Of a stretch of DNA of 64,000 nucleotides, positions 6,882 through 43,401 are shown piece by piece (position 1 is the first letter of the stretch; each line of letters opens with the position of its first letter). Origin of the DNA: an uncultured Rikenella sp. (lineage in GTDB: Bacteria; Bacteroidota; Bacteroidia; Bacteroidales; Rikenellaceae); NCBI GenBank assembly GCA_910577885.1, contig CAJTNK010000002.1:21580-85579 (forward strand). Direction: 5' to 3'. Made by a program: the position numbers and the translations under genes. Under the pieces are notes generated by a model, which saw only the letters and a list, made by a program, of their open reading frames with translations, was not told where the DNA came from and ran no database searches.

Positions 6882-6918
6882 AAAAAGGTTGCTAATCAAA
6901 CGATTAGCAACCTTTTTT
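6882..6918. terminator. bidirectional hairpin terminator
   Basis: Stem AAGGTTGCTAATC / GATTAGCAACCTT, loop AAAC, flanked by an A-run on the left and T6 on the right. Lies between the last gene of the left phage block and the att core. Confidence 0.6.
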
Positions 6919-6939
6919 GTGCCCAGGACAAGAATTGAA
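6919..6939. repeat. attL core (displaced copy of the tRNA-Leu 3' end)
   Basis: GTGCCCAGGACAAGAATTGAA versus GTGCCCAGGACAGGAATCGAA at 43319-43339. The first 12 nt are identical. Confidence 0.65.
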
Positions 6940-6956: not shown

Positions 6957-7060
6957 TTCGGTTTACGTGGCAAATTATATACAAATACGCTGTAATTAAG
7001 TGCTTTGTAAATTTTTCTTGGAGGTGATGTAAATTTCATTTTGTTGCTGAATATTGCAAT

Positions 7061-7084
7061 ATGTTGTGCAGATGTTGTGCAAAG
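7061..7084 (+). promoter_or_regulatory. tandem arm-type integrase-binding repeats (left arm)
   Basis: ATGTTGTGCAGATGTTGTGCAAAG. The same tandem TGTTGTGC-N3-TGTTGTGC arrangement occurs in the same orientation at 43241-43263. Confidence 0.5.
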
Positions 7085-7088
7085 AATG

Positions 7089-7096
7089 TATATTTG
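7089..7096 (+). promoter_or_regulatory. candidate Bacteroides-type -7 promoter box for int
   Basis: TATATTTG fits TAnnTTTG, 23 nt upstream of the int ATG. Confidence 0.35.
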
Positions 7097-7118
7097 CATA
7101 ACCGAACATTCTTTTGCT

Positions 7119-8444
7119 ATGGCGACCGTAAAAGCCTTTATCCGCACTTCTACCCGAAAAGCGACAACCGTCAATATCCGGTTCCGACTGAGTGCCGGGC
7201 GCGGTATTCAGCTGTTTCATTCCAGCGAAATCGAAGTCCCGCCCACCGTGTGGGATGACGTCCGGCAGGAAGTGAAAGCCAAGGTAGTTTTTGATAGTTC
7301 TAAACGGATCGAAATCAACCGGAGTGTTGCGGATCGGAAAAACCTCATTTTGGAGGTGTACGACGCCGTAGCAAATAAAGATGGGCTGACGTCCGGGTGG
7401 TTGGACGAACAAATTGACCGGCGATTGCATCCCGAAAAGTACACGGATGCCAGCGACAAGCAAACCTTTTTCGACGCCTTTGCCGAATTTCTGCGGGTGC
7501 ATAAATACTCTCAGTGGCGGCAACGAGCTTTTCAGGTAGTGATTCGTGCCTTGCAACGCTATGAACTGTACACCCGCAAAAAACAAGGTCCGGCCTTTGT
7601 CTTGTCGATGGATACGATCACCCCGGCCCTGTTGTCCGACTTCGAGGACTTTTTACGCAACGAATACCAGTATGCCGACCAACACCCCAATATTTACGAA
7701 GCGGTGCCGGAAAGCAGAACACCCGTACAGCGAGGGCAAAATACGATCAATGGTATCTTAATTAAGATTCGCACGTTCTTCATTTGGGCCAATAAGGTCG
7801 GGAAGACTGCGAACAACCCGTTTCGCAACTATTCGATTGCCGAAAGCGTCTACGGCACCCCCTATTACATCACCATCGAGGAGCGAAACAAATTATACCG
7901 GACCAATCTTTCGCGACATCCTCAACTGGCCATTCAGCGGGATATTTTCGTATTCCAATGCCTTATCGGCTGCCGGGTGGGGGACTTGTACCAAATGACC
8001 CGAAATAACGTCATAAACGACGCAATCGAGTACATCCCGCGGAAAACGAAAGAGGGACGCCCCGTAACCGTGCGTGTCCCTCTCAATGCGGTTGCGGCGG
8101 AGATATTGGACAAATACCCGTCCAATGGCGGCCCACTATTTCCATTTATGGCTCAGCAGCAGTATAACAAAGCCATCAAACGCATCTTTCTTGCAGCGGG
8201 CTTATGTCGCCCCGTGGTGGTCATCAATCCGACCACTCGCGAGCAGGAGATAAGGCCGCTGAACGAAATAGCCTCTTCACACTTGGCGCGGCGTTGTTTT
8301 GTCGGAAACCTGTATAAGCAGGTCAAGGATCCTAATTTGGTAGGTGCCTTGTCCGGCCACGTGGACGGCTCGCGGGCTTTCGCCCGCTACCGGGAAATCG
8401 ACGAAGAGATGAAACGTGACCTCGTCAAACTGCTGGAGAAATAA
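7119..8444 (+). CDS. int: tyrosine recombinase / phage integrase (441 aa) with N-terminal Arm DNA-binding domain
   Basis: N-terminus MATVKAFIRTSTRKATTVNIRFRLSAG is typical of Bacteroidetes Arm-domain integrases. The catalytic region has HLARRCF (H-x-x-R) and a C-terminal ARY tyrosine. Start taken at the internal Met of track ORF 7041..8444. Confidence 0.9.
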   Translation: MATVKAFIRTSTRKATTVNIRFRLSAGRGIQLFHSSEIEVPPTVWDDVRQEVKAKVVFDSSKRIEINRSVADRKNLILEVYDAVANKDGLTSGWLDEQIDRRLHPEKYTDASDKQTFFDAFAEFLRVHKYSQWRQRAFQVVIRALQRYELYTRKKQGPAFVLSMDTITPALLSDFEDFLRNEYQYADQHPNIYEAVPESRTPVQRGQNTINGILIKIRTFFIWANKVGKTANNPFRNYSIAESVYGTPYYITIEERNKLYRTNLSRHPQLAIQRDIFVFQCLIGCRVGDLYQMTRNNVINDAIEYIPRKTKEGRPVTVRVPLNAVAAEILDKYPSNGGPLFPFMAQQQYNKAIKRIFLAAGLCRPVVVINPTTREQEIRPLNEIASSHLARRCFVGNLYKQVKDPNLVGALSGHVDGSRAFARYREIDEEMKRDLVKLLEK

Positions 8445-8565: not shown

Positions 8566-9528
8566 ATGACTACCTACAATAAACCTCCTTTGACATTTCA
8601 ACAACAAGTTGAGTTGTTAAAATCACGCGGTTTAGAAATCACTGATGAACAACGTGCGATTAGACACCTGACAAATATCAGCTATTACAGACTGAGTGCC
8701 TACATGTTGCCTTTTAAAATCAGAGAAAACGGGCAATATACGGATCAATTTATTACTGGCACTAAATGGGAAAACATACATGCTTTATATGTTTTTGATC
8801 GTAAATTACGACTATTAGTATTTGATGCAATTGAGCGAATTGAAATCGGCCTTCGTACACAAATCATATATCAACTCAGTTTAAAATACGGTTCTCATTG
8901 GCACGATCGCTCCGACATATTTAAGCTCAGTTCAAAATACAGCAAAAGAACCGGCAAAACCATAACTACGGATATTTTCCATGATTTACAACAACACATC
9001 CAGACGTTGTTGGTATCTAATCATGCCGAAGTATTTATCAAACACTATAAAGCACGATATGATGAGCCGGTAACTCCGCCCTCATGGATGTCCGTTGAAA
9101 CCTTATATTTCAGCCACCTGTCTAAAATTTGTGAAAATTTACGACAAAGAGCCGATCGGGTAGCTATTGCTTCACGATTTGATCTTCCCCCTGAAATATT
9201 TTGCTCTTGGCTTCACACAATCAATAATATACGCAATATTTGCGCTCACCATGGCAGGCTATGGAATCGAACGATCGACGTTGTTCCTGAAAAATTACAT
9301 GTATCAAAATCCAATGTAAAAATCTGGATAACAGAACCCGAAAGAGTTAAACGTAGTAAGATATATTATTTCTTATGCATGATTAATTATTTGCTTCAGA
9401 CGGTTAATCCGACAAGTGATTTCAAAAATCGTTTGAGCAAACTGCTATACGATTATCCGAATGTCGCACTCTGGGAAATGGGATTTCCTAAACATTGGCA
9501 ACGGGAAACCATGTGGAAAATTGATTGA
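8566..9528 (+). CDS. Abi_2 (AbiD/AbiF-like) abortive-infection family protein (320 aa)
   Basis: N-terminus KPPLTFQQQVELLKSRGLEITDEQRAIRHLTNISYYRLSAYMLPF and the later NNIRNICAHHGRLWN match the Abi_2 signature. The locus is markedly lower in GC than its surroundings. Confidence 0.8.
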   Translation: MTTYNKPPLTFQQQVELLKSRGLEITDEQRAIRHLTNISYYRLSAYMLPFKIRENGQYTDQFITGTKWENIHALYVFDRKLRLLVFDAIERIEIGLRTQIIYQLSLKYGSHWHDRSDIFKLSSKYSKRTGKTITTDIFHDLQQHIQTLLVSNHAEVFIKHYKARYDEPVTPPSWMSVETLYFSHLSKICENLRQRADRVAIASRFDLPPEIFCSWLHTINNIRNICAHHGRLWNRTIDVVPEKLHVSKSNVKIWITEPERVKRSKIYYFLCMINYLLQTVNPTSDFKNRLSKLLYDYPNVALWEMGFPKHWQRETMWKID

Positions 9529-9569: not shown

Positions 9570-9597
9570 CCTTTGTGCCCAGAAAGAGAATATGAAA
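9570..9597. repeat. degenerate third att-like site
   Basis: CCTTTGTGCCCAGAAAGAGAATATGAAA. TTTGTGCCCAG (11 nt) is identical to 6916-6926, followed by a GAAT..TGAA similarity. Confidence 0.35.
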
Positions 9598-34358: not shown

Positions 34359-35638
34359 TTCCCATTACGCTCAAATAAATAATTCACATCTAACTCCCAC
34401 AGATCGTTCCAACGCCACAAAATCCACTTGATAACCTCTACCGTCCAGCCGTTGCCCAGCAGGCGGTATATCTGCGAGTCGCTGACCACCCATTCGTACC
34501 ACGTCGGAATCGTCTGCAACCGGGCGCATTCGGTCGGTGTCAGGCGGCGGATGCTGCGATCTGTGAGTATTTTAGCTTGCAAATTTCCGCCTGTGCCGGC
34601 ATTTAATGTCGGACTCTTGCCGGCCGGGTCATAAATTCGATTTTGCTGTCGGGGCTGACCTCCAAACTCTCGACTGGGGTTCAGTTGGACGACCATCGGA
34701 ATATGCCCGCCGCCCATACCTGCCGAAGCCAAAATCGGCGTACTTTTATTAACCGACACCGTGGCGTGTGCTTGGTTGGAACTTACACAAAGCAGGTTGT
34801 TTCGTTCCCATCCATTCGCCGATAAGGTCGGAACCTTGCCCACACGCTCACCACCCTTATTATAGCCCCGCGGACGTTGTACAATGAACGTTCCCGTCCA
34901 GCTGGCGACGCCTTTTGCGGTCAGACACACCGCCTTTTTGCTTCCGTCGTTCAAGTCCGTGTGTCTTCCAAGACGTTTCGGATCGGTGATATAGCGCGCC
35001 ATCTTCTCGCTGACATTATATTTCTCCGGCACCTCCGTTTCAAGGATGTCCCGAAGAAACACCCCCCGGTCTTCCGGTTGCGGGATATCGCTGTGCAGCT
35101 CTCCAAACAGACCTTCTCGTCGCGTCCGAATGTCTGTCCAGTACCATCTGTCGCGGTTCTGCGCGCTAACGAGCGACGAGTTGATCCGGACGGGAAATAC
35201 GCCGACGCGCTCCGAAATCACCCGCAGGTATTCCCGCTTCATATTGACGTTTTCGAGTAGGAAACGGACATCGGGGTTATGCTGCCGAACGTGGTTCAGA
35301 ATATCAACGAAAACAAAAAACAACCGGCTGCGGGGATCGTCGAACGCCATCTGCTTGCCGGCGAAACTGAATCCCTGACAAGGCGATCCGGCCAACACGA
35401 GGTCGATTCCCGCCCAATCGACCTCCCAATCCCGCCACCGCTCCACGTCGCCGAGCTGCACGGTGTCCGGAAAATTGTGCTGCGTCTGTCGGATCGGATA
35501 CTTGTCGATCTCGGCGGCGTAATAGATCTCCGGCTCCACACCGAGTTCCCGCAGGGCGATTTGTCCGCAGCTCATACCATCAAATAGGCTTAAAATCCGC
35601 ATTCTTTTGCAGTGTGGTTCGGGTGGCTTCATGGTCAT
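34355..35638 (-). CDS. DNA (cytosine-5)-methyltransferase (427 aa)
   Basis: Motif I LSLFDGMSCG, motif IV GSPCQGFSFAGK, motif VI FLLENV. C-terminal RRLTPTECARLQTIP and LLGNGWTV. Start fixed by an ATGA overlap at 35635-35638. Confidence 0.9.
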   Translation of the reverse strand: MTMKPPEPHCKRMRILSLFDGMSCGQIALRELGVEPEIYYAAEIDKYPIRQTQHNFPDTVQLGDVERWRDWEVDWAGIDLVLAGSPCQGFSFAGKQMAFDDPRSRLFFVFVDILNHVRQHNPDVRFLLENVNMKREYLRVISERVGVFPVRINSSLVSAQNRDRWYWTDIRTRREGLFGELHSDIPQPEDRGVFLRDILETEVPEKYNVSEKMARYITDPKRLGRHTDLNDGSKKAVCLTAKGVASWTGTFIVQRPRGYNKGGERVGKVPTLSANGWERNNLLCVSSNQAHATVSVNKSTPILASAGMGGGHIPMVVQLNPSREFGGQPRQQNRIYDPAGKSPTLNAGTGGNLQAKILTDRSIRRLTPTECARLQTIPTWYEWVVSDSQIYRLLGNGWTVEVIKWILWRWNDLWELDVNYLFERNGK

Positions 35639-38133
35639 GCCGTTTGAATCATGTCGAAAAGCGTAGGAGCATTGCGGTTTTGTTCTGCCTCTCGGAGGTA
35701 AGCCAACGAATCCCGCCAATAATCCGGATTCAGCTCCGTAGAAAGACCGAAACGCCCCATCTTGACAGCCGTGTACGGTACCGTGCCGATCCCTCCGAAC
35801 GGATCATAAACCACCTCGCCCGGATTGCTGTACCGATTGATGATCCGCTCCACGATGTCCAGCTGGAGCGGGCAGATGTGGTTTTGGAGCCTCTTTTGCT
35901 TCTGTCGGCTGTTGAGCGTCCGCATCCGGACGACATCGTCCCACACCCATTCCGACTTGCTGACCGGGTCCACTGCCATAAACGTCGCCGGCAACCGCCC
36001 TGCCGCATCCATCCGTTTGGCCAACTCCACGTGAGCCGCATAGTCGTACACCAGTTCCCAGGATTGGAGGCGAAAGAATCGGCGCGCCTTGTCCACGTCC
36101 ATGGCCGCAAACTCATCCGCCGACAAGAGCCGGTTGCCCGAACTGTTCCAAAAGGCGTGCGCGTCGATCTGCCATTGCGCCCGTGTGTACTCCTCTTTCG
36201 ACTTGCATACCGGAACATCCGCGTATGCTTTGCTCCCGTCCGTGGGCCGCTTGCGGAACAAAAGAATGTATTCCGGACACCCCACCCCCATTTTTGAGCC
36301 GTCTTTGCACTGCTCCGACCATCCGAGGCGGTAAGTCTGGTTGTTCTCCCGCACCACGTCCGTAACTACCGTAATCATCCCCACCATGTGAAACCCGTGT
36401 TTGAGGTAGTGCGAAATGCACTCCGAATGGAACGGGTCGATGGTCGGCATCCCGGTACCCGTGGCGTTGCCGAATAATACCCGGTCCTTGACATGGACCG
36501 CCGCGATCCGCCCCGGCTGGAGCACCCGCAACAGTTCCGGCGTCAGGTAATCCATCTGCTCGAAGAACTTGGCGTTGTTCTCGTTGTGGCCGAAGTCGTT
36601 GTAACTGGGCGTATATTCGTAATGGTTGCTGAACGGGATCGAAGTGTGGATCAGCGCGACCGAGTTGTCGGCCATCCGGGCCGTCTCGATCGTCGTGTCG
36701 TTGTGAATGGCCCGATAGTAGCGGCCGACCTCTTCCCGGCGTTCGACGCCGATAGAACGTTGCATTTTCTCGTAAATGTGAGTGGTGTTCAATCCGTTTT
36801 CCTGAATAATCCGCGTCATCTGCTCGACCAAATAGTCATGCTGTTTCCATTTCTTCTGCAAGGCTTTGAGGATTTCGCCCTCGCTTTCGGCATAGATGAT
36901 GTGTATTTCGACCTCCTCGGTTTGCAGGAAACGATACACGCGGTGGACAGCCTGAATGAAATCGTTGAACTCGTAACCGATGCCCGTGAAGATCGCCTTA
37001 TGGCAATGCCGCTGAAAGTTGCATCCCTGGCCGCTAATGCTGGGTTTGGTGGCCAAATATTTGATCCGTCCGTGCGAAAAATCGACGATTCTCTGTTCTC
37101 GCTGTTCGAGGTCTTGCGAACCGTACACCTCCGTGATCTCCGGGATGGCCGCTTTGAGTGCATGGCGTTCCGCTTCGAGGTCGTGCCAGATTACGTAATG
37201 ACTCTCCGGATCGGCCTCGATGATCTCCCGGGTCTTGGCGATCCGGGCCGCCATGCTGTCGCGCTTCTCGCGGGCCGCCTCTTTGAGGCCCAACGCCGCA
37301 TCGCGGAACAGCTGGCTTTGGCCGAACTTGTCCACCAATCCCGCATCGTGCTCGACCGCTACTTCATGGTAGATTACCCGCATCTCCGGCAGGTCATACC
37401 CTGCGTCGTCGAAACCCAGGTCGGACGGCTTGGTGATGAACAGAGCCCACGACGACAGCCACAACCAAAATTCACGCTCCTTGTGCGGATAGAGGGTCAG
37501 GTTGTTGGCCTTGGTGCTGTCGCGTTGGAAAAAGCGCGTCAGAGCCTGGCCGGTGTCCATGATACCGAGGAAACCGGCATAATGGATCAGCTCTTTGTAC
37601 TTGTTTGGCGACGGGGTGGCCGTGCAGACGAACCGGTATTTGACATCGCGGAACTTCGACAGGAAAGTTTGGTAGGTCTTCGAGCCGAACGACCGCAATA
37701 TCGATGCTTCGTCCAGGCAAACGACCGTATAGTCGTTCGGGTTTATATCCCCGTCCCGCATCCGCTCGTAATTGGTAATCTGTACGGTGGCGGTGCTGGC
37801 CAGCGATTCGGCCCGCGTGCGGACGTACTCGACCGTCAGCCCAAGCAGATTCCGGGCGTCCTGCGTAAACTCCTGCTTGACACCGAGCGGGCAGACGATC
37901 AGCGCGCGCCCTCCCTCCCGGGCGGTAATGATTCGGCATATCTCCAGCTGCTGGAGCGTCTTGCCAAGTCCGAAGCTCTCGAACAAGGCGCGGCAACCGC
38001 CGCGAACGGCCCATTTGACCGCTTCGCGCTGGTGCGGTTTGAGGATCGGGGATAATTCTCTCTCCTCAACTTCAAATCCGCTCTGTACGGCCAAATTGAT
38101 CTTGCTGTTCAAAAAATCCGAATAGTTTTTCAT
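35635..38133 (-). CDS. SNF2-family helicase fused to a beta-class N6A/N4C DNA methyltransferase (832 aa)
   Basis: N-terminal half: LKPHQREAV, GLGKTLQ, CLDEAS, TATPSPN, and C-terminal helicase motifs (SGQGCNFQ...). C-terminal half: IHTSIPFS (motif IV position) and VVYDPFGGIGTVPYTA (motif I), in the order typical of the N-4/N-6 methylase family. Confidence 0.8.
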   Translation of the reverse strand: MKNYSDFLNSKINLAVQSGFEVEERELSPILKPHQREAVKWAVRGGCRALFESFGLGKTLQQLEICRIITAREGGRALIVCPLGVKQEFTQDARNLLGLTVEYVRTRAESLASTATVQITNYERMRDGDINPNDYTVVCLDEASILRSFGSKTYQTFLSKFRDVKYRFVCTATPSPNKYKELIHYAGFLGIMDTGQALTRFFQRDSTKANNLTLYPHKEREFWLWLSSWALFITKPSDLGFDDAGYDLPEMRVIYHEVAVEHDAGLVDKFGQSQLFRDAALGLKEAAREKRDSMAARIAKTREIIEADPESHYVIWHDLEAERHALKAAIPEITEVYGSQDLEQREQRIVDFSHGRIKYLATKPSISGQGCNFQRHCHKAIFTGIGYEFNDFIQAVHRVYRFLQTEEVEIHIIYAESEGEILKALQKKWKQHDYLVEQMTRIIQENGLNTTHIYEKMQRSIGVERREEVGRYYRAIHNDTTIETARMADNSVALIHTSIPFSNHYEYTPSYNDFGHNENNAKFFEQMDYLTPELLRVLQPGRIAAVHVKDRVLFGNATGTGMPTIDPFHSECISHYLKHGFHMVGMITVVTDVVRENNQTYRLGWSEQCKDGSKMGVGCPEYILLFRKRPTDGSKAYADVPVCKSKEEYTRAQWQIDAHAFWNSSGNRLLSADEFAAMDVDKARRFFRLQSWELVYDYAAHVELAKRMDAAGRLPATFMAVDPVSKSEWVWDDVVRMRTLNSRQKQKRLQNHICPLQLDIVERIINRYSNPGEVVYDPFGGIGTVPYTAVKMGRFGLSTELNPDYWRDSLAYLREAEQNRNAPTLFDMIQTA

Positions 38134-39707: not shown

Positions 39708-40019
39708 TTATTGGGCCGGTTCGTTTTTGGCATTCAAAATCCGGTCGATGTCCGATTTTCGGTACCGACGTTGCCCGCCGATCTCGATGACTTTCAAGTA
39801 GCCGTTTTTATCCCACCGCCAAAGCGTGCTGCGATTCACCGACAGCTTTTCCGCCACGTATTCGATTGTGTACAGCGTTTCCGTCTTTCCGTCGGCGATT
39901 TCCCGCTCGATTTGGAGGCGTGTGGCATCGGCGACGCTTTGGGCGAACTCTTTCAAATCCGCCGGCGAAATCGCCAGGGTGATGTTGGCCCCGCCGTTTA
40001 TCAATTCTTCGATTTTCAT
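39708..40019 (-). CDS. excisionase-family HTH (HTH_17/MerR-like) DNA-binding protein (103 aa)
   Basis: YTIEYVAEKLSVNRSTLWRWDKNGYLKVIEIGGQRRYRKSDI matches the excisionase-family DNA-binding domain. Confidence 0.6.
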   Translation of the reverse strand: MKIEELINGGANITLAISPADLKEFAQSVADATRLQIEREIADGKTETLYTIEYVAEKLSVNRSTLWRWDKNGYLKVIEIGGQRRYRKSDIDRILNAKNEPAQ

Positions 40020-40237: not shown

Positions 40238-40349
40238 GTGCGTTTTTTGAATTATCGTTCCCGCCCCGGTCTCGCTCCGGGTTGCCAGTCGTTAGCTGCC
40301 TACGGGAAAACACTTAACTTTGAGGTGTCCAATCTTAAAATCAAGTGTT

Positions 40350-40784
40350 ATGAATACTCAACAAACCACTGATCCTGTTGATCGCATTTCAGATTATTGT
40401 CGGGATCATCTAAATAAACTCGAACGGGTTTTTCAAAATCTTCTAATCGTATCGACAAGTATCCTTGGAATACTGGTTGCCCTTCCTGTAAACATTTCCA
40501 CCTTACCCACTCTCCGAGTTCTGTATCTTGTCGCTCTAATTCTATTGTGCATTTCCTGTCTGTTAAATGCGATTCAACTATACGCACTATCCAATCATTC
40601 GCTGAAAATGGCGCAGGTGTTAGTAAAACAAATCCGCCAGGTCTTAAACGGCTCTTCCGTTCACTGTACCATTTATCTACCCGTTCCCAAATGGATTGTA
40701 GTTTTTCAAAAAATCGTCTTGCTATGCTTTCCCGTTTCACTTGTTTTGTTGGCATCGTATTCGATTCTTAAAGCCTATTTATAG
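40350..40784 (+). CDS. three-TM membrane protein upstream of the repressor (144 aa); ambiguous with antisense ORF 40348..40755
   Basis: Hydrophobic segments LLIVSTSILGILVALPV, LRVLYLVALILLCISCLLNAIQLYAL and IVLLCFPVSLVLLASYSIL. The low GC matches the + strand immunity/cargo genes. The opposite strand also carries a 135-aa open frame with a soluble-protein composition. Confidence 0.35.
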   Translation: MNTQQTTDPVDRISDYCRDHLNKLERVFQNLLIVSTSILGILVALPVNISTLPTLRVLYLVALILLCISCLLNAIQLYALSNHSLKMAQVLVKQIRQVLNGSSVHCTIYLPVPKWIVVFQKIVLLCFPVSLVLLASYSILKAYL

Positions 40785-40864
40785 TTATCGCGCTCCGTTA
40801 ATTTGTTATCTTTGTTAATCGCTTTCTGTTGTAACGCCGTTATAACCGTGTTGCAAGGGCAAAG

Positions 40865-40884
40865 ATTGCGAATATCATCGCAAT
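40865..40884. promoter_or_regulatory. candidate operator (inverted repeat) upstream of the repressor gene
   Basis: ATTGCGA-ATATCA-TCGCAAT. The half-site TCGCAAT recurs at 40908-40914, overlapping the repressor ATG. Confidence 0.3.
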
Positions 40885-40912
40885 AAACAAATAATTCACT
40901 AAGATTTTCGCA

Positions 40913-41293
40913 ATGACAAAGCAAAGAATTTTACAATACATTGAATTTAAAGGGATTAGTAAGACTATTTTTTTTCAATCAACGGATATAAAACGGGGGT
41001 TGTTAGATGCAGACAAGATGAATGCAACTGTTTCCGATGTTGTTCTTGCGAAAATTTTAGCTGTTTATCCCGATCTGAATATCGAATGGCTTATTACCGG
41101 GAAAGGGGAGATGTTGAAAGAAGATAGTTTGAGTATTGCAAAAAATGACGTAAAATTGTGGACGGTGATCGAGTCGCAACAGCGCACGATCGAGCAGAAT
41201 GCCAATACGATTGCTGCATTGACTCAACAATTGGCGCAAAAGGGGGATGTGGCGGGTGTGCCGGGTGTTGCACCGACGGCGGCACGCGGATAG
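40913..41293 (+). CDS. CI-type phage repressor, HTH (126 aa)
   Basis: MTKQRILQYIEFKGISKTIFFQSTDIKRGLLD...VLAKILAVYPDLNIEWLITGKGEM matches the bacteriophage CI repressor HTH pattern common in Bacteroidales. Divergent from the early genes. Confidence 0.7.
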   Translation: MTKQRILQYIEFKGISKTIFFQSTDIKRGLLDADKMNATVSDVVLAKILAVYPDLNIEWLITGKGEMLKEDSLSIAKNDVKLWTVIESQQRTIEQNANTIAALTQQLAQKGDVAGVPGVAPTAARG

Positions 41294-41379
41294 CCTCGGC
41301 ACCTCAACGGCATGCCGCATTTCGGACATTCAAGAAAAGCGCGCTTTAACAATTAGAAATATCTACTAAAATTTTTCAC

Positions 41380-42474
41380 ATGGATTTTCAAGACATTATA
41401 CGGCAGTTGGTGGAACGCATCGAAAAGATGAAAGATAACGTTCTGACGGAAGAGGCGACAAAAAACGCTTTTATTATGCCGTTTATCAATGCGTTGGGTT
41501 ACGACGTTTTCAATCCGACCGAAGTCGTTCCCGAGTTCATCTGCGACATAGGCATCAAGAAAGGGGAGAAGATCGATTATGCCATTATGCAGGACGGGAA
41601 GCCTGTCATTCTTATCGAGTGCAAGCATTGCTTGCAGGATCTTAGCCTGCACGATAATCAATTGTTGCGGTACTTCACCGTTTCGCCGGCCAAATTCGGT
41701 GTGTTGACCAATGGTATCATCTATCGATTCTATACCGATCTGGAGAAAGAGAATGTGATGGATGAAAAACCGTTCTTGGAGGTCAATTTGTTGGAATTGC
41801 GGGACACACAGATCGAGGAGTTGCGCAAGTTCCATAAGTCGTATTTCGATGTGGATAACATCATGAATACGGCAAGCGAACTCAAATATACGAATGAGTT
41901 GAAACGGCTGATCGCTTCCGAGATGAGTAATCCGACGCCGGAATTTGTGAAGTTTTTCGCTCGGCAGGTGTATAGCGGCCAGATGAAAGAGCGGGCAATG
42001 GAGCAGTTTACCGGCTTGATGAAGCGTGCCGCCTCGCAGTGGAAAAACGACATTATCAATGAACGGTTGAAAGCCGCTTTAAATAATGACGTTCAAGTTT
42101 CGACCACCTCTTCAGCGGAAAAATCGGAACCAGAGGCGGAACATTGCGAAGATTCCGACAACGGTATCGTAACTACTGCGGAAGAATTGCAGGGCTATTA
42201 TATCGTTAAGTCTATTCTGGCGCAAAAAGTATCTTTGAATCGAGTTGTCGGGCGCGATACGAAGTCGTATTTCGGGGTTCTGCTGGATGACAACAACCGG
42301 AAGCCGATTTGTCGATTGTGGTTCAACCGGAGCAATAAATACGTCGGCACATTCGATGCGGAGAAGAATGAGACTCGACATTTGGTCAACAGCCTGGACG
42401 AGATTTATACTTTGGCGGAACCTATCTGTGCGGCTGTCGATTATTACGAAGGGACGACCAACGGCGGGGAGTAA
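41380..42474 (+). CDS. HsdR-N-type (type I restriction enzyme R N-terminal domain) PD-(D/E)xK protein with uncharacterised C-terminal domain (364 aa)
   Basis: LTEEATKNAFIMPFINALGYDVFNPTEVVPEF...GEKIDYAIMQDGKPVILIECK...FGVLTNGIIYRFY is the HSDR_N-type signature (D..E.K core). Confidence 0.7.
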   Translation: MDFQDIIRQLVERIEKMKDNVLTEEATKNAFIMPFINALGYDVFNPTEVVPEFICDIGIKKGEKIDYAIMQDGKPVILIECKHCLQDLSLHDNQLLRYFTVSPAKFGVLTNGIIYRFYTDLEKENVMDEKPFLEVNLLELRDTQIEELRKFHKSYFDVDNIMNTASELKYTNELKRLIASEMSNPTPEFVKFFARQVYSGQMKERAMEQFTGLMKRAASQWKNDIINERLKAALNNDVQVSTTSSAEKSEPEAEHCEDSDNGIVTTAEELQGYYIVKSILAQKVSLNRVVGRDTKSYFGVLLDDNNRKPICRLWFNRSNKYVGTFDAEKNETRHLVNSLDEIYTLAEPICAAVDYYEGTTNGGE

Positions 42475-42494
42475 TAGTAGACCCTGGGCGTTTC

Positions 42495-43235
42495 ATGCAA
42501 AGTATGATTGAATTTCGCCAGCGGATATACCAGATCGTAGAAAAGAGCGAGGGGCACAGCGGACTCAGTTACGGATACGACATATTCATGTCCGTTTGCA
42601 TCTGCCTGAGCTTGTTGCCGCTGTTCTTTCGGCAGCAGTATCCGGTGTTTTACTATTTCGACCTCTTCACCGTTATTGTCTTTATCCTTGACTATATCGC
42701 CCATTGGATGACCGCCGACCTGCGGCGGACTTACTCGCATCGGTGGGCGGCGTTCTTGCTGTATCCGGTTACGCCGATGGGGATTGTGGATTTGTTGTCC
42801 ATTTTGCCCGGCGTCAATCTGCTGCCGAACGGGTACAAGATTTTCCGGGTGTCGCGGCTGCTGAAGATCGTGCGGGTGTTCAAATTCTTTCGGTACTCCG
42901 AGCAATTCCAGCTGCTGTTTCGCGTCCTGCGGAACGAACGGAAGGTGCTGTTGTCGGTGTTGATGATCGCCGTGTTTTACATCATCGTCACCGCGCTCGT
43001 CATGTTCAATGCCGGGCAGGGAAGTTCTCATTTCGACTCTTACTTCGATGCGTTGTATTGGGCCACGACGACCTTGACGACGGTAGGATACGGCGATATT
43101 TGCCCGGCGAATGACTTGGGGCGGGTGATTAGTATGCTTTCTGCGTTGTTCGGCGTGGCGATCATTGCGCTGCCGTCGGGGATTATCACGGCTTCTTACC
43201 TGGATGAATTGCGCAAGGAGCGGGACGGAAAATAG
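42495..43235 (+). CDS. 6TM voltage-gated-type K+ channel (246 aa)
   Basis: Selectivity filter TTLTTVGYGD. S4-like helix FRVSRLLKIVRVFKFFR with R/K at every third position (6 charges). S5, pore helix and S6 are recognisable. Confidence 0.85.
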   Translation: MQSMIEFRQRIYQIVEKSEGHSGLSYGYDIFMSVCICLSLLPLFFRQQYPVFYYFDLFTVIVFILDYIAHWMTADLRRTYSHRWAAFLLYPVTPMGIVDLLSILPGVNLLPNGYKIFRVSRLLKIVRVFKFFRYSEQFQLLFRVLRNERKVLLSVLMIAVFYIIVTALVMFNAGQGSSHFDSYFDALYWATTTLTTVGYGDICPANDLGRVISMLSALFGVAIIALPSGIITASYLDELRKERDGK

Positions 43236-43240
43236 GGGAT

Positions 43241-43263
43241 TTGTTGTGCAAATGTTGTGCGGA
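43241..43263 (+). promoter_or_regulatory. tandem arm-type integrase-binding repeats (right arm)
   Basis: TTGTTGTGCAAATGTTGTGCGGA. Same tandem motif and orientation as 7061-7084. Confidence 0.5.
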
Positions 43264-43270
43264 TAGAAAA

Positions 43271-43313
43271 AGAAAGAGAGATAATCAACTGAATGTCAAT
43301 TATCTCTCTTTCT
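43271..43313 (-). terminator. phage-supplied hairpin terminator immediately 3' of tRNA-Leu
   Basis: AGAAAGAGAGATAAT / ATTATCTCTCTTTCT is a 15-bp perfect stem. On the minus strand it follows the tRNA CCA end and is followed by a T-run. Confidence 0.5.
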
Positions 43314-43316
43314 TCA

Positions 43317-43401
43317 TGGTGCCCAGGACAGGAATCGAACCTGCACGCCTTGCGGCACACGCACCTGAAACGTGCGCGTCTACCTATTCCGCCACCTGGG
43401 C
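43317..43401 (-). tRNA. tRNA-Leu (anticodon CAG), type II with long variable arm, CCA encoded
   Basis: Folded by hand: acceptor GCCCAGG/CCTGGGC. Anticodon stem CACGT/GCGTG with loop TT-CAG-GT. Variable arm TGCCGCAAGGCGT. T arm GCAGG-TTCGATT-CCTGT. Discriminator A plus CCA. Confidence 0.85.
43319..43339. repeat. attR core (within the tRNA-Leu 3' end)
   Basis: GTGCCCAGGACAGGAATCGAA, partner of 6919-6939. Confidence 0.65.

Follow-up and report, generated by a model that had tools for sequence, protein, structure and literature searches.

The window analysed here is a 64,000-nucleotide stretch of DNA from an uncultured Rikenella sp. (contig CAJTNK010000002.1) that contains a prophage integrated at a tRNA-Leu gene. 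Three same-strand genes at one end of this prophage encode a CI-like repressor, an HsdR-type PD-(D/E)xK nuclease and a minimal six-transmembrane (6TM) voltage-gated K+ (Kv) channel. We conclude that this locus is probably the lysogeny arm of a tRNA-Leu temperate phage, in which the repressor is accompanied by two independent accessory (moron) genes. We hold the architecture, and the mutual independence of nuclease and channel, with high confidence. That each of the two may independently protect the lysogen is a plausible proposal, although it falls short of probable.

The open reading frame (ORF) call places the repressor gene at 40913..41293 (+, 126 aa), the nuclease gene at 41380..42474 (+, 364 aa) and the channel gene, the last gene of the prophage, at 42495..43235 (+, 246 aa). 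The gap between repressor and nuclease is 86 nt and that between nuclease and channel is 20 nt. These values reproduce exactly the three same-strand ORFs described in an earlier note on this DNA, and the placement of the genes as the repressor-strand arm adjoining attR was also supported. The note had claimed that no terminators separate the genes and that they are lower in GC content than the phage body. A terminator scan across the three-gene arm found no hairpin plus T-run between genes, the sole strong hairpin (43270-43314) lying 3' of the channel. The GC content of the region is 0.42-0.50, compared with 0.52-0.59 in the phage body.

The same note had proposed that nuclease and channel form a two-gene sensor/effector module, and our neighbourhood survey does not support this. 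No channel lay within 8 kb of the nuclease homologue (~60% identity) in any of 80 IMG/VR loci. A further scan, headed by a family member from a Streptococcus phage, added 79 loci from 40 lineages, and none matched a panel of ~70 channel proteins. Pooled, the two scans give 0/159 viral nuclease loci with a channel. In the reverse direction, 80 viral channel loci from 47 lineages included one with the nuclease family, where it lies two genes downstream and convergent, and 80 chromosomal channel loci included none. All of these counts rest on top-80 locus sets. Hidden Markov models of the nuclease N- and C-domains built from the close alignment retrieved nothing among the upstream neighbours of channels, and the model from the diverse alignment retrieved only two loci (L224 and L239).

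Separation was also evident among close relatives. Three of the four examined nuclease relatives at 87-90% identity lack a channel: the 88% identical nuclease is followed by an unknown 153-aa gene, the 90% identical one by an unknown 167-aa gene and the 87% identical one by an integrase. A channel with 96% identity to that of the window occurs in another Rikenella metagenome-assembled genome (L089; JAIDFC010000139, 2861-10723) with no HSDR_N gene within 10 kb. It has the same att arm, with just a 113-aa ORF and a fragment of the repressor gene ahead of it, and lies at a tRNA-Leu(GAG) beside thrS, with a tape-measure-like gene ~3.5 kb away. L089 resembles a prophage that has decayed or been rearranged while its channel stayed intact and conserved. 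In another relative (L008, 7627-8381), the channel frame is split (71 aa + 180/217 aa) and the adjoining nuclease is intact and 99% identical; the split is either a true frameshift or an assembly error. The earlier note had named failure to co-occur outside this prophage as an observation that would count against its module. Because the genes separate outside the lineage, in both directions and even for near-identical proteins, the module fails on that ground. An obligate nuclease-channel pair is ruled out by the counts (0/159, 1/80 convergent, 0/80) together with the 87-90% identical relatives that lack a channel.

Nuclease and channel each recur by themselves in the slot between repressor and integrase, in temperate phages that are unrelated to one another. 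For the nuclease, which belongs to the phrog_4225 family, a same-strand CI/XRE gene lies at most 1.3 kb upstream in 73/79 loci and 36/40 lineages from at least four phyla. The nuclease directly follows a CI-type repressor or CI-ImmA in Streptococcus Javan316, Corynebacterium Juicebox, Fusobacterium FNU_1P and Enterococcus EG-TP1, and in all four it points away from cro and has the integrase downstream. Identity between phyla is 41-61%. In Bacteroidales prophages the nuclease lies 13-46 nt after repressors that combine a helix-turn-helix (HTH) domain with an S24 domain. The gene after the nuclease varies, and may encode a CAP12/Pycsar-type TIR protein, a DpnII restriction endonuclease (REase), an ORF6N protein, an integrase or small unknown proteins.

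The channel occupies a similar position. In Dulem virus 33, Lactobacillus PLE2 and JNU_P5 it follows a CI-like HTH gene, directly or with one gene between, is divergent from cro/antirepressor and has an integrase further downstream. The tightly linked ORF upstream of viral channels (57 loci) carries HTH_3 in 28 cases, Peptidase_S24 in 6 and Phage_CI_repr in 2. After dereplication, an XRE-type HTH gene is directly upstream of the channel in 16 of the 47 viral lineages. Of the viral channel loci, 38/80 have an integrase-like ORF, in most cases immediately 3' of the channel and co-oriented with it; within 10 kb of chromosomal channels, the figure is 1/80. Here and in relatives, the repressor-to-integrase slot holds swappable cargo: Abi_2, TIR protein, DpnII REase, nuclease and channel.

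We also observed that the slot adjoining the phrog_4225 nuclease gathers defence-type domains. A 275-aa protein with a CAP12/Pycsar-effector TIR domain overlaps the 3' end of the HSDR_N gene in one locus (L027, 9089-9916) and in five others (L039, L042, L044, L048 and L054). In another group of Bacteroidales prophages, a DUF4062 protein precedes the HSDR_N gene (L056, 6949-7905).

The 126-aa product of the first gene has no HTH match and no Peptidase_S24 match in Pfam. A pairwise comparison aligns its residues 1-70 with the N-terminal domain of a repressor that combines HTH and Peptidase_S24 (31% identity, E 3e-12), and the two share the motif WL(I/L)TG(K/Q)GEML. The protein also matches phrog_2328, 'transcriptional repressor', weakly (3e-3). 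The alignment and this weak match back the view of the first gene as CI-like. The protein comprises a putative N-terminal HTH domain and a coiled-coil-like C-terminal tail, without an S24 autocleavage domain. In the diverged relative L003, S24 proteins replace it at this position. A search for the pattern TAnnTTTG returned a suggestive candidate for a Bacteroidetes-type -7 promoter box, TATCTTTG (40807..40814, +), ~100 nt upstream of the repressor gene. A sigma-70 promoter scan was set aside, that model being inapplicable to Bacteroidetes. An inverted-repeat search identified palindromic TTGCAA/TTGCGAA-type motifs at 40829-40856 and 40865-40914, which could be candidate operators.

Several lines of evidence identify the second gene product as a nuclease. 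The 364-aa protein matches HSDR_N (2.3e-16, 60.7 bits) and HSDR_N_2 (1.8e-8, 34.9 bits) in Pfam, where the gathering cut-offs are ~25, and it matches phrog_4225, 'endonuclease', from end to end (1e-137). The catalytic residues D66/E80/K82 are invariant in 35 close and 73 diverse family members. The HsdR-N-type PD-(D/E)xK assignment is thereby well founded. Within the lineage, the gene is under strong purifying selection (dN/dS 0.03-0.09). The family is very large, with 1815 clusters at 50% identity (E <= 1e-30), nearly all with the same ~360-aa architecture. We found no functional study in the literature on phrog_4225 or on 'Prophage Lp2 protein 6', the SEED-style name of the Javan316 homologue.

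An AlphaFold2 (AF2) model of the nuclease built from the 73 diverse sequences reached a pLDDT of 92.3. It has an N-terminal alpha/beta nuclease domain (~1-140), a long helical linker and a C-terminal alpha-beta5-alpha domain (~265-360). In a fold search of the PDB, the top match was 3H1T (probability 1.00, E 0.011, 121 columns), followed by EcoR124I HsdR (2W00), with none at E <= 0.001; the C-terminal domain had no confident match. A first AF2 model, from the 35 close homologues (pLDDT 64.7), gave nothing significant with Foldseek against PDB and BFVD, and sequence and profile searches with the nuclease against PDB gave no match even at E 10. The protein resembles the HsdR nuclease domain (3H1T, EcoR124I 2W00) and stand-alone Mrr-type type IV nucleases in its HSDR_N domain and its D-ExK motif. 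Unlike HsdR, it has no helicase/translocase domain in the Pfam search and no hsdM or hsdS nearby, its neighbours being the repressor and the channel. The long helical linker and C-terminal domain are present instead.

The 246-aa product of the third gene matches Ion_trans (1e-27; 97.2 bits, cut-off 25) and Ion_trans_2 (8.5e-17; 61.2 bits, cut-off 22.5) in Pfam. It aligns with Kv7 structures over S1-S6 (~1e-23) and with Shaker over S4-S6 (~1e-20). The K+ selectivity filter TTVGYGD (residues 195-201) is invariant in 21 homologues and aligns to the Kv7.2 filter. Read from the sequence, S4 carries basic residues at every third position: K115, R118, R121, K124, R127, K130 and R133. The Pfam matches, the TVGYGD filter and this seven-charge S4 all agree with the earlier assignment as a voltage-gated K+ channel. 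Its topology is an S1-S4 voltage sensor followed by an S5-P-S6 pore, with cytoplasmic parts of only ~25 residues at the N-terminus and ~12 residues at the C-terminus. Within the lineage, the channel gene is likewise under strong purifying selection (dN/dS ~0.03-0.04). The S1-S6 alignment, the TVGYGD filter and the periodic S4 charges are shared with cellular Kv channels (Kv7/KCNQ, Shaker and the ~245-aa Bacteroidales 'ion transporter' family). Unlike these, the window channel is phage-borne and encoded by the last gene before attR.

Phage Kv channels were found with hosts in the Bacteroidales and Lactobacillus and, judging by base composition, also on Actinobacteria-like and Firmicutes-like contigs. 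The channel of Lactobacillus phage PLE2 is a homologue of the window channel at 26.5% identity. A scan of viral contigs with the single channel sequence gave no matches; the alignment-based scan did retrieve loci. Our literature search turned up no study of Kv channels encoded in lysogeny modules, nor any that addressed exclusion by prophage K+ channels. As a separate observation, a DUF4236 protein of 94 to 446 aa is repeatedly encoded just upstream of a Kv channel, as in L003 (9703-9987), L172, L183 and L238. DUF4236 was a channel neighbour in 4/57 viral loci and 2/64 chromosomal loci, in addition to L003, and is a steadier neighbour of the channel than is the HSDR_N nuclease.

How might two independent genes protect a lysogen? 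On the basis of their shared strand, close spacing and lack of intervening terminators, we infer that repressor, nuclease and channel would be transcribed together in the lysogen. The nuclease would attack incoming DNA without a methylase, in a restriction-like or abortive manner. Its targets may be modified DNA or replication intermediates, with the C-terminal domain probably picking the target. For the channel, the near absence of a cytoplasmic domain and the complete voltage sensor suggest that the trigger is most likely membrane potential and not a partner protein. Phage DNA entry depolarises cells and releases K+, as described for T4 and T5 (PMC6163359). Depolarisation by an infecting phage could open the Kv channel. 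K+ would then flow, either resetting the membrane potential or depleting the cell of K+, and the superinfecting phage would fail at injection or during development.

A number of observations weigh against this account of independent, protective genes. Close relatives at the same site retain both nuclease and channel, the 20-nt gap is kept in the window phage lineage, and the diverged relative L003 retains both genes with a DUF4236 gene inserted between them. Other nuclease-fold genes lie directly upstream of the channel in three viral lineages: a 250-aa HSDR_N_2 protein in a high-GC phage (L224, 7169-8786) and a membrane-anchored Mrr_cat protein with an integrase following (L226, 7097-8630), both overlapping the channel start, and a DpnI homologue immediately upstream (L174). 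Neither family has a known defence phenotype, and PADLOC gave no real match. The closest relatives of the channel are ordinary chromosomal Bacteroidales channels (55-63% identity; thousands of members lie at 55-60%), and the channel could simply supply the host with K+ channel activity.

The defence models searched were those of PADLOC-DB v2.0.0, which gave no match for the channel or the repressor. The earlier note had expected no match to defence libraries. This expectation held for the channel but not for the nuclease, which matched a type IIG REase model weakly (2.7e-4).

In L224 (high-GC) and L226 (low-GC), which are unrelated contigs, we noted the same order of repressor, PD-(D/E)xK protein and Kv channel, with overlapping ORFs. 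Both channels end in a CxxC zinc-ribbon-like tail, an addition at the C-terminus that is absent from the window channel.

The independent protective roles could be extended into a combined reading, which we regard as possible but doubtful. It comprises a Kv exclusion class, a CI-linked phrog_4225 defence and occasional modulation of the channel by a nuclease. Minimal Kv channels would then be unrecognised recurrent genes of repressor operons that act as self-contained exclusion devices. The phrog_4225 family would constitute a nuclease defence that works without a methylase and is linked to CI almost universally. The channel might additionally be modulated, in a minority of lineages, by a nuclease-fold protein associated with the membrane or with DNA.

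The main alternative is that the channel is a lysogenic-conversion gene, serving ion homeostasis, membrane potential or gut electrical signalling, with no anti-phage role. We consider this unlikely, but it accounts for several of the data. The nearest relatives of the channel are chromosomal Bacteroidales channels whose upstream genes are housekeeping genes, and no defence model matches the channel. The intact channel beside the apparently decayed prophage in L089 fits conversion, but it fits a protective role equally. For a host that already holds this channel family, however, a second copy would bring little gain. The repeated placement of the channel after the repressor (16/47 lineages), with Abi_2 nearby, is the classic position of an exclusion gene, although conversion genes suit it too.

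The phrog_4225 nuclease could instead belong to the phage's switch, recombination or excision machinery and have no part in defence. Its position right after CI or CI-ImmA in 36/40 lineages of at least four phyla is unusually tight for cargo. This alternative is nonetheless improbable. Many related phages lack the nuclease, Porphyromonas phages carry it in another cargo island, after HicAB, and it is also found on long chromosomal Bacteroidales contigs, which may themselves carry prophages. The invariant D-ExK motif and the lack of DNA-binding regulator features fit a nuclease.

Lambda cI-rexA-rexB provides the model for a third alternative. RexB is a membrane protein, proposed to be an ion channel triggered by RexA, that collapses membrane potential and aborts superinfection. 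The resemblance in position that the earlier note had drawn is upheld: in both loci, accessory genes lie directly downstream of the repressor on the same strand, one product is a membrane ion-conducting protein, and expression in the lysogen is likely. By analogy, the nuclease-fold protein would sense phage DNA and open the Kv channel in a two-gene abortive infection. The adjacency of the genes, with a 20-nt gap and no terminator, fits such a pair. So do the retention of both under strong purifying selection in the window lineage and in L003, and the HSDR_N_2, Mrr_cat and DpnI proteins that directly precede Kv channels in L224, L226 and L174. Only two HSDR_N-domain ORFs occur among the 1894 ORFs of the viral channel loci, and both lie at most two genes from the channel. 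The Hailong system, according to PMC13434031, offers an ion-channel effector controlled by a nucleic-acid enzyme.

Against a RexAB-like pair stand the absence of a channel from all 159 viral nuclease loci and the separation seen at 87-90% identity for nucleases and 96% for the channel. Phage channels mostly follow the repressor directly, and the window channel has no cytoplasmic domain to receive the signal of a soluble partner. Because both families occupy the same small repressor-to-integrase slot, their proximity is expected; optional coupling of the two retains a low probability. The window also differs from lambda in that no RexA or RexB family appears among its Pfam, PHROG and PADLOC matches, that its two accessory genes are separable in nature, and that its Kv channel, of the canonical tetrameric type, brings its own voltage sensor and a K+ filter. 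We regard the RexAB-like pair as very improbable. Under the independent reading, exclusion by the window channel would resemble in function that by the chlorovirus channel Kcv or by lambda RexB, with a self-contained voltage sensor in place of a partner protein.

A host origin for the channel, and perhaps for the nuclease, beside tRNA-Leu and with a misplaced att boundary has a negligible chance of being correct: a 96% identical channel does adjoin tRNA-Leu in another Rikenella genome, but the tRNA there is a different one (anticodon GAG, beside thrS), similarity spans channel, arm repeats, hairpin and core and then ends, and the left host flank closes with its own terminator at attL. We rejected it on the presence of arm repeats inside both att sites and on conservation that ends at the core.

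The attachment sites support the boundary in detail. A tRNA scan placed tRNA-Leu(CAG) at 43317-43401 (-). The attR core (43312..43339) overlaps the 3' end of this tRNA gene and is a direct repeat of 6912-6939. The latter stretch is the attL core (6912..6939), a displaced tRNA 3' fragment right after the host terminator hairpin. On the 5' side of the attR core lies an arm-type repeat pair, TGTTGTGC-N3-TGTTGTGC (43241..43260, +), that is conserved in related loci and is the probable integrase arm site of attR. A second TGTTGTGC-N3-TGTTGTGC pair lies inside attL at 7061-7080; these two matches compare with 0.02 expected. Four related loci keep the channel 3' end, the arm repeats, the long hairpin and the core GGTGCCCAGGACA. 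Beyond the core, two of them run into tRNA-Leu(CAG) and two into the different tRNA-Leu(GAG), and divergence starts there. Conservation up to the core beside two different tRNA-Leu genes indicates that the channel is phage DNA and that the att boundary is correct. The boundary given in the earlier note is thus confirmed, with the stretch from arm through core GGTGCCCAGGACA kept at both tRNA genes and the sequences parting only past the core.

The long hairpin (43270..43314), between the arm repeats and the att core, has 19 pairs in the alignment fold. The stretch that holds it (43225-43330) has a fold energy of -31.9 kcal/mol. Compensatory changes affect 4/19 pairs among five sequences (the window, L089 10758-10802, L003, L004 and L334). 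A T-run follows on the minus strand, as would be expected of a phage-supplied terminator of the rebuilt tRNA-Leu, which the hairpin probably is. A further possible role is to terminate the transcript of the repressor arm.

In the excised circle, the + strand order is repressor, nuclease, channel, attP, integrase and Abi_2. The tyrosine integrase gene (7041..8444, +; Pfam Phage_int_SAM_5 and Phage_integrase) is thus directly downstream of the channel across attP. It is followed on its own strand by an abortive-infection family gene of AbiD/AbiF-like type (8566..9528, +; Pfam Abi_2 2e-54). We also found a third att-like copy, TTTGTGCCCAGAAAGAGAAT, at 9572-9591, just after Abi_2, by comparison with 6916-6935 and 43316-43335. 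It matches attL at 17/20 positions, and none is expected by chance. The int-Abi_2 block is therefore itself bounded by att-like sequences. It may be a relic of tandem integration or a separately gained cassette.

In the minus-strand early region, an HTH_17 gene (39708-40019, -) is divergent from the repressor gene. Between the early lytic genes and the repressor are two overlapping ORFs, one encoding a 154-aa hydrophobic protein (40320-40784, +) and the other a 135-aa soluble-looking protein (40348-40755, -). Neither has a family match. Both are intact in L008, and gene callers differ on them: L335 has the minus ORF annotated, L336 a + strand ORF of 144 aa, and L008 neither. Another early-region gene (35635-38133, -) codes for an 832-aa protein in which an SNF2-type helicase domain is fused to an N6/N4 DNA methyltransferase domain; both domains were taken from precomputed Pfam matches of identical-length homologues in L008 and L334. 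This fusion may bear on self-protection from nucleases.

Ion channels have precedent as anti-phage effectors. In Hailong, HalA is a tetrameric ion-channel effector that depolarises the membrane and HalB is a nucleotidyltransferase (Tan et al. 2025, as summarised in PMC13434031). On its cytoplasmic side HalA carries a large DNA-binding crown, and oligo-dA made by HalB keeps the channel closed, according to the same source. An IRK potassium-channel domain occurs in a Hailong-like protein (PMC13586616). The window resembles Hailong in that an ion channel is encoded beside a nucleic-acid enzyme. It differs in that Pfam identifies no nucleotidyltransferase domain in the neighbouring genes, the channel termini are short, a voltage sensor is present, and the neighbour is a PD-(D/E)xK nuclease that is also found without a channel. 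The earlier remark that no defence system employs a 6TM K+ channel stands, in that we found no counter-example in the literature.

Among viral channels, the window channel shares a canonical K+ filter with chlorovirus Kcv and the listed phage channels. Greiner et al. in 2009 reportedly found that Kcv-driven depolarisation excludes further infection. Kcv and most of the listed phage channels are two-transmembrane, pore-only proteins of lytic viruses that act at entry, whereas the window channel is a 6TM voltage-gated protein in a lysogeny module. Greiner et al. 2018 listed phage K+ channels, the PLE2 protein among them, without assigning them a function (PMC6163359). That survey does not discuss genomic position, and the word 'prophage' is absent from its text (PMC6163359).

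Prophage exclusion genes are known from the repressor/integrase region, such as lactococcal Sie2009 and S. thermophilus Ltp (PMC3952083) and BstA (PMC8585504), and the P2/P4 defence hotspots are variable prophage cargo slots (PMC13586616). Like these, the window arm is a variable cargo slot beside lysogeny genes that holds diverse swappable genes. In contrast to these, the window families have predicted roles only and no convincing match in PADLOC v2. The locus belongs to this known setting of cargo and defence genes in the prophage repressor-integrase slot.

As genes linked to the repressor, those for Kv channels and for the phrog_4225 nuclease are two testable leads that deserve follow-up. 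On the conservative reading, the locus illustrates how the repressor-to-integrase slot gathers swappable cargo. The phrog_4225 nuclease, from a very large family found almost always right after the phage repressor, is an evident candidate for a new single-gene prophage defence. If the protective role of the channel is true, a eukaryote-like voltage-gated K+ channel would join the known anti-phage effectors, and prokaryotic Kv channels, whose physiological roles are largely unknown, would gain a testable function.

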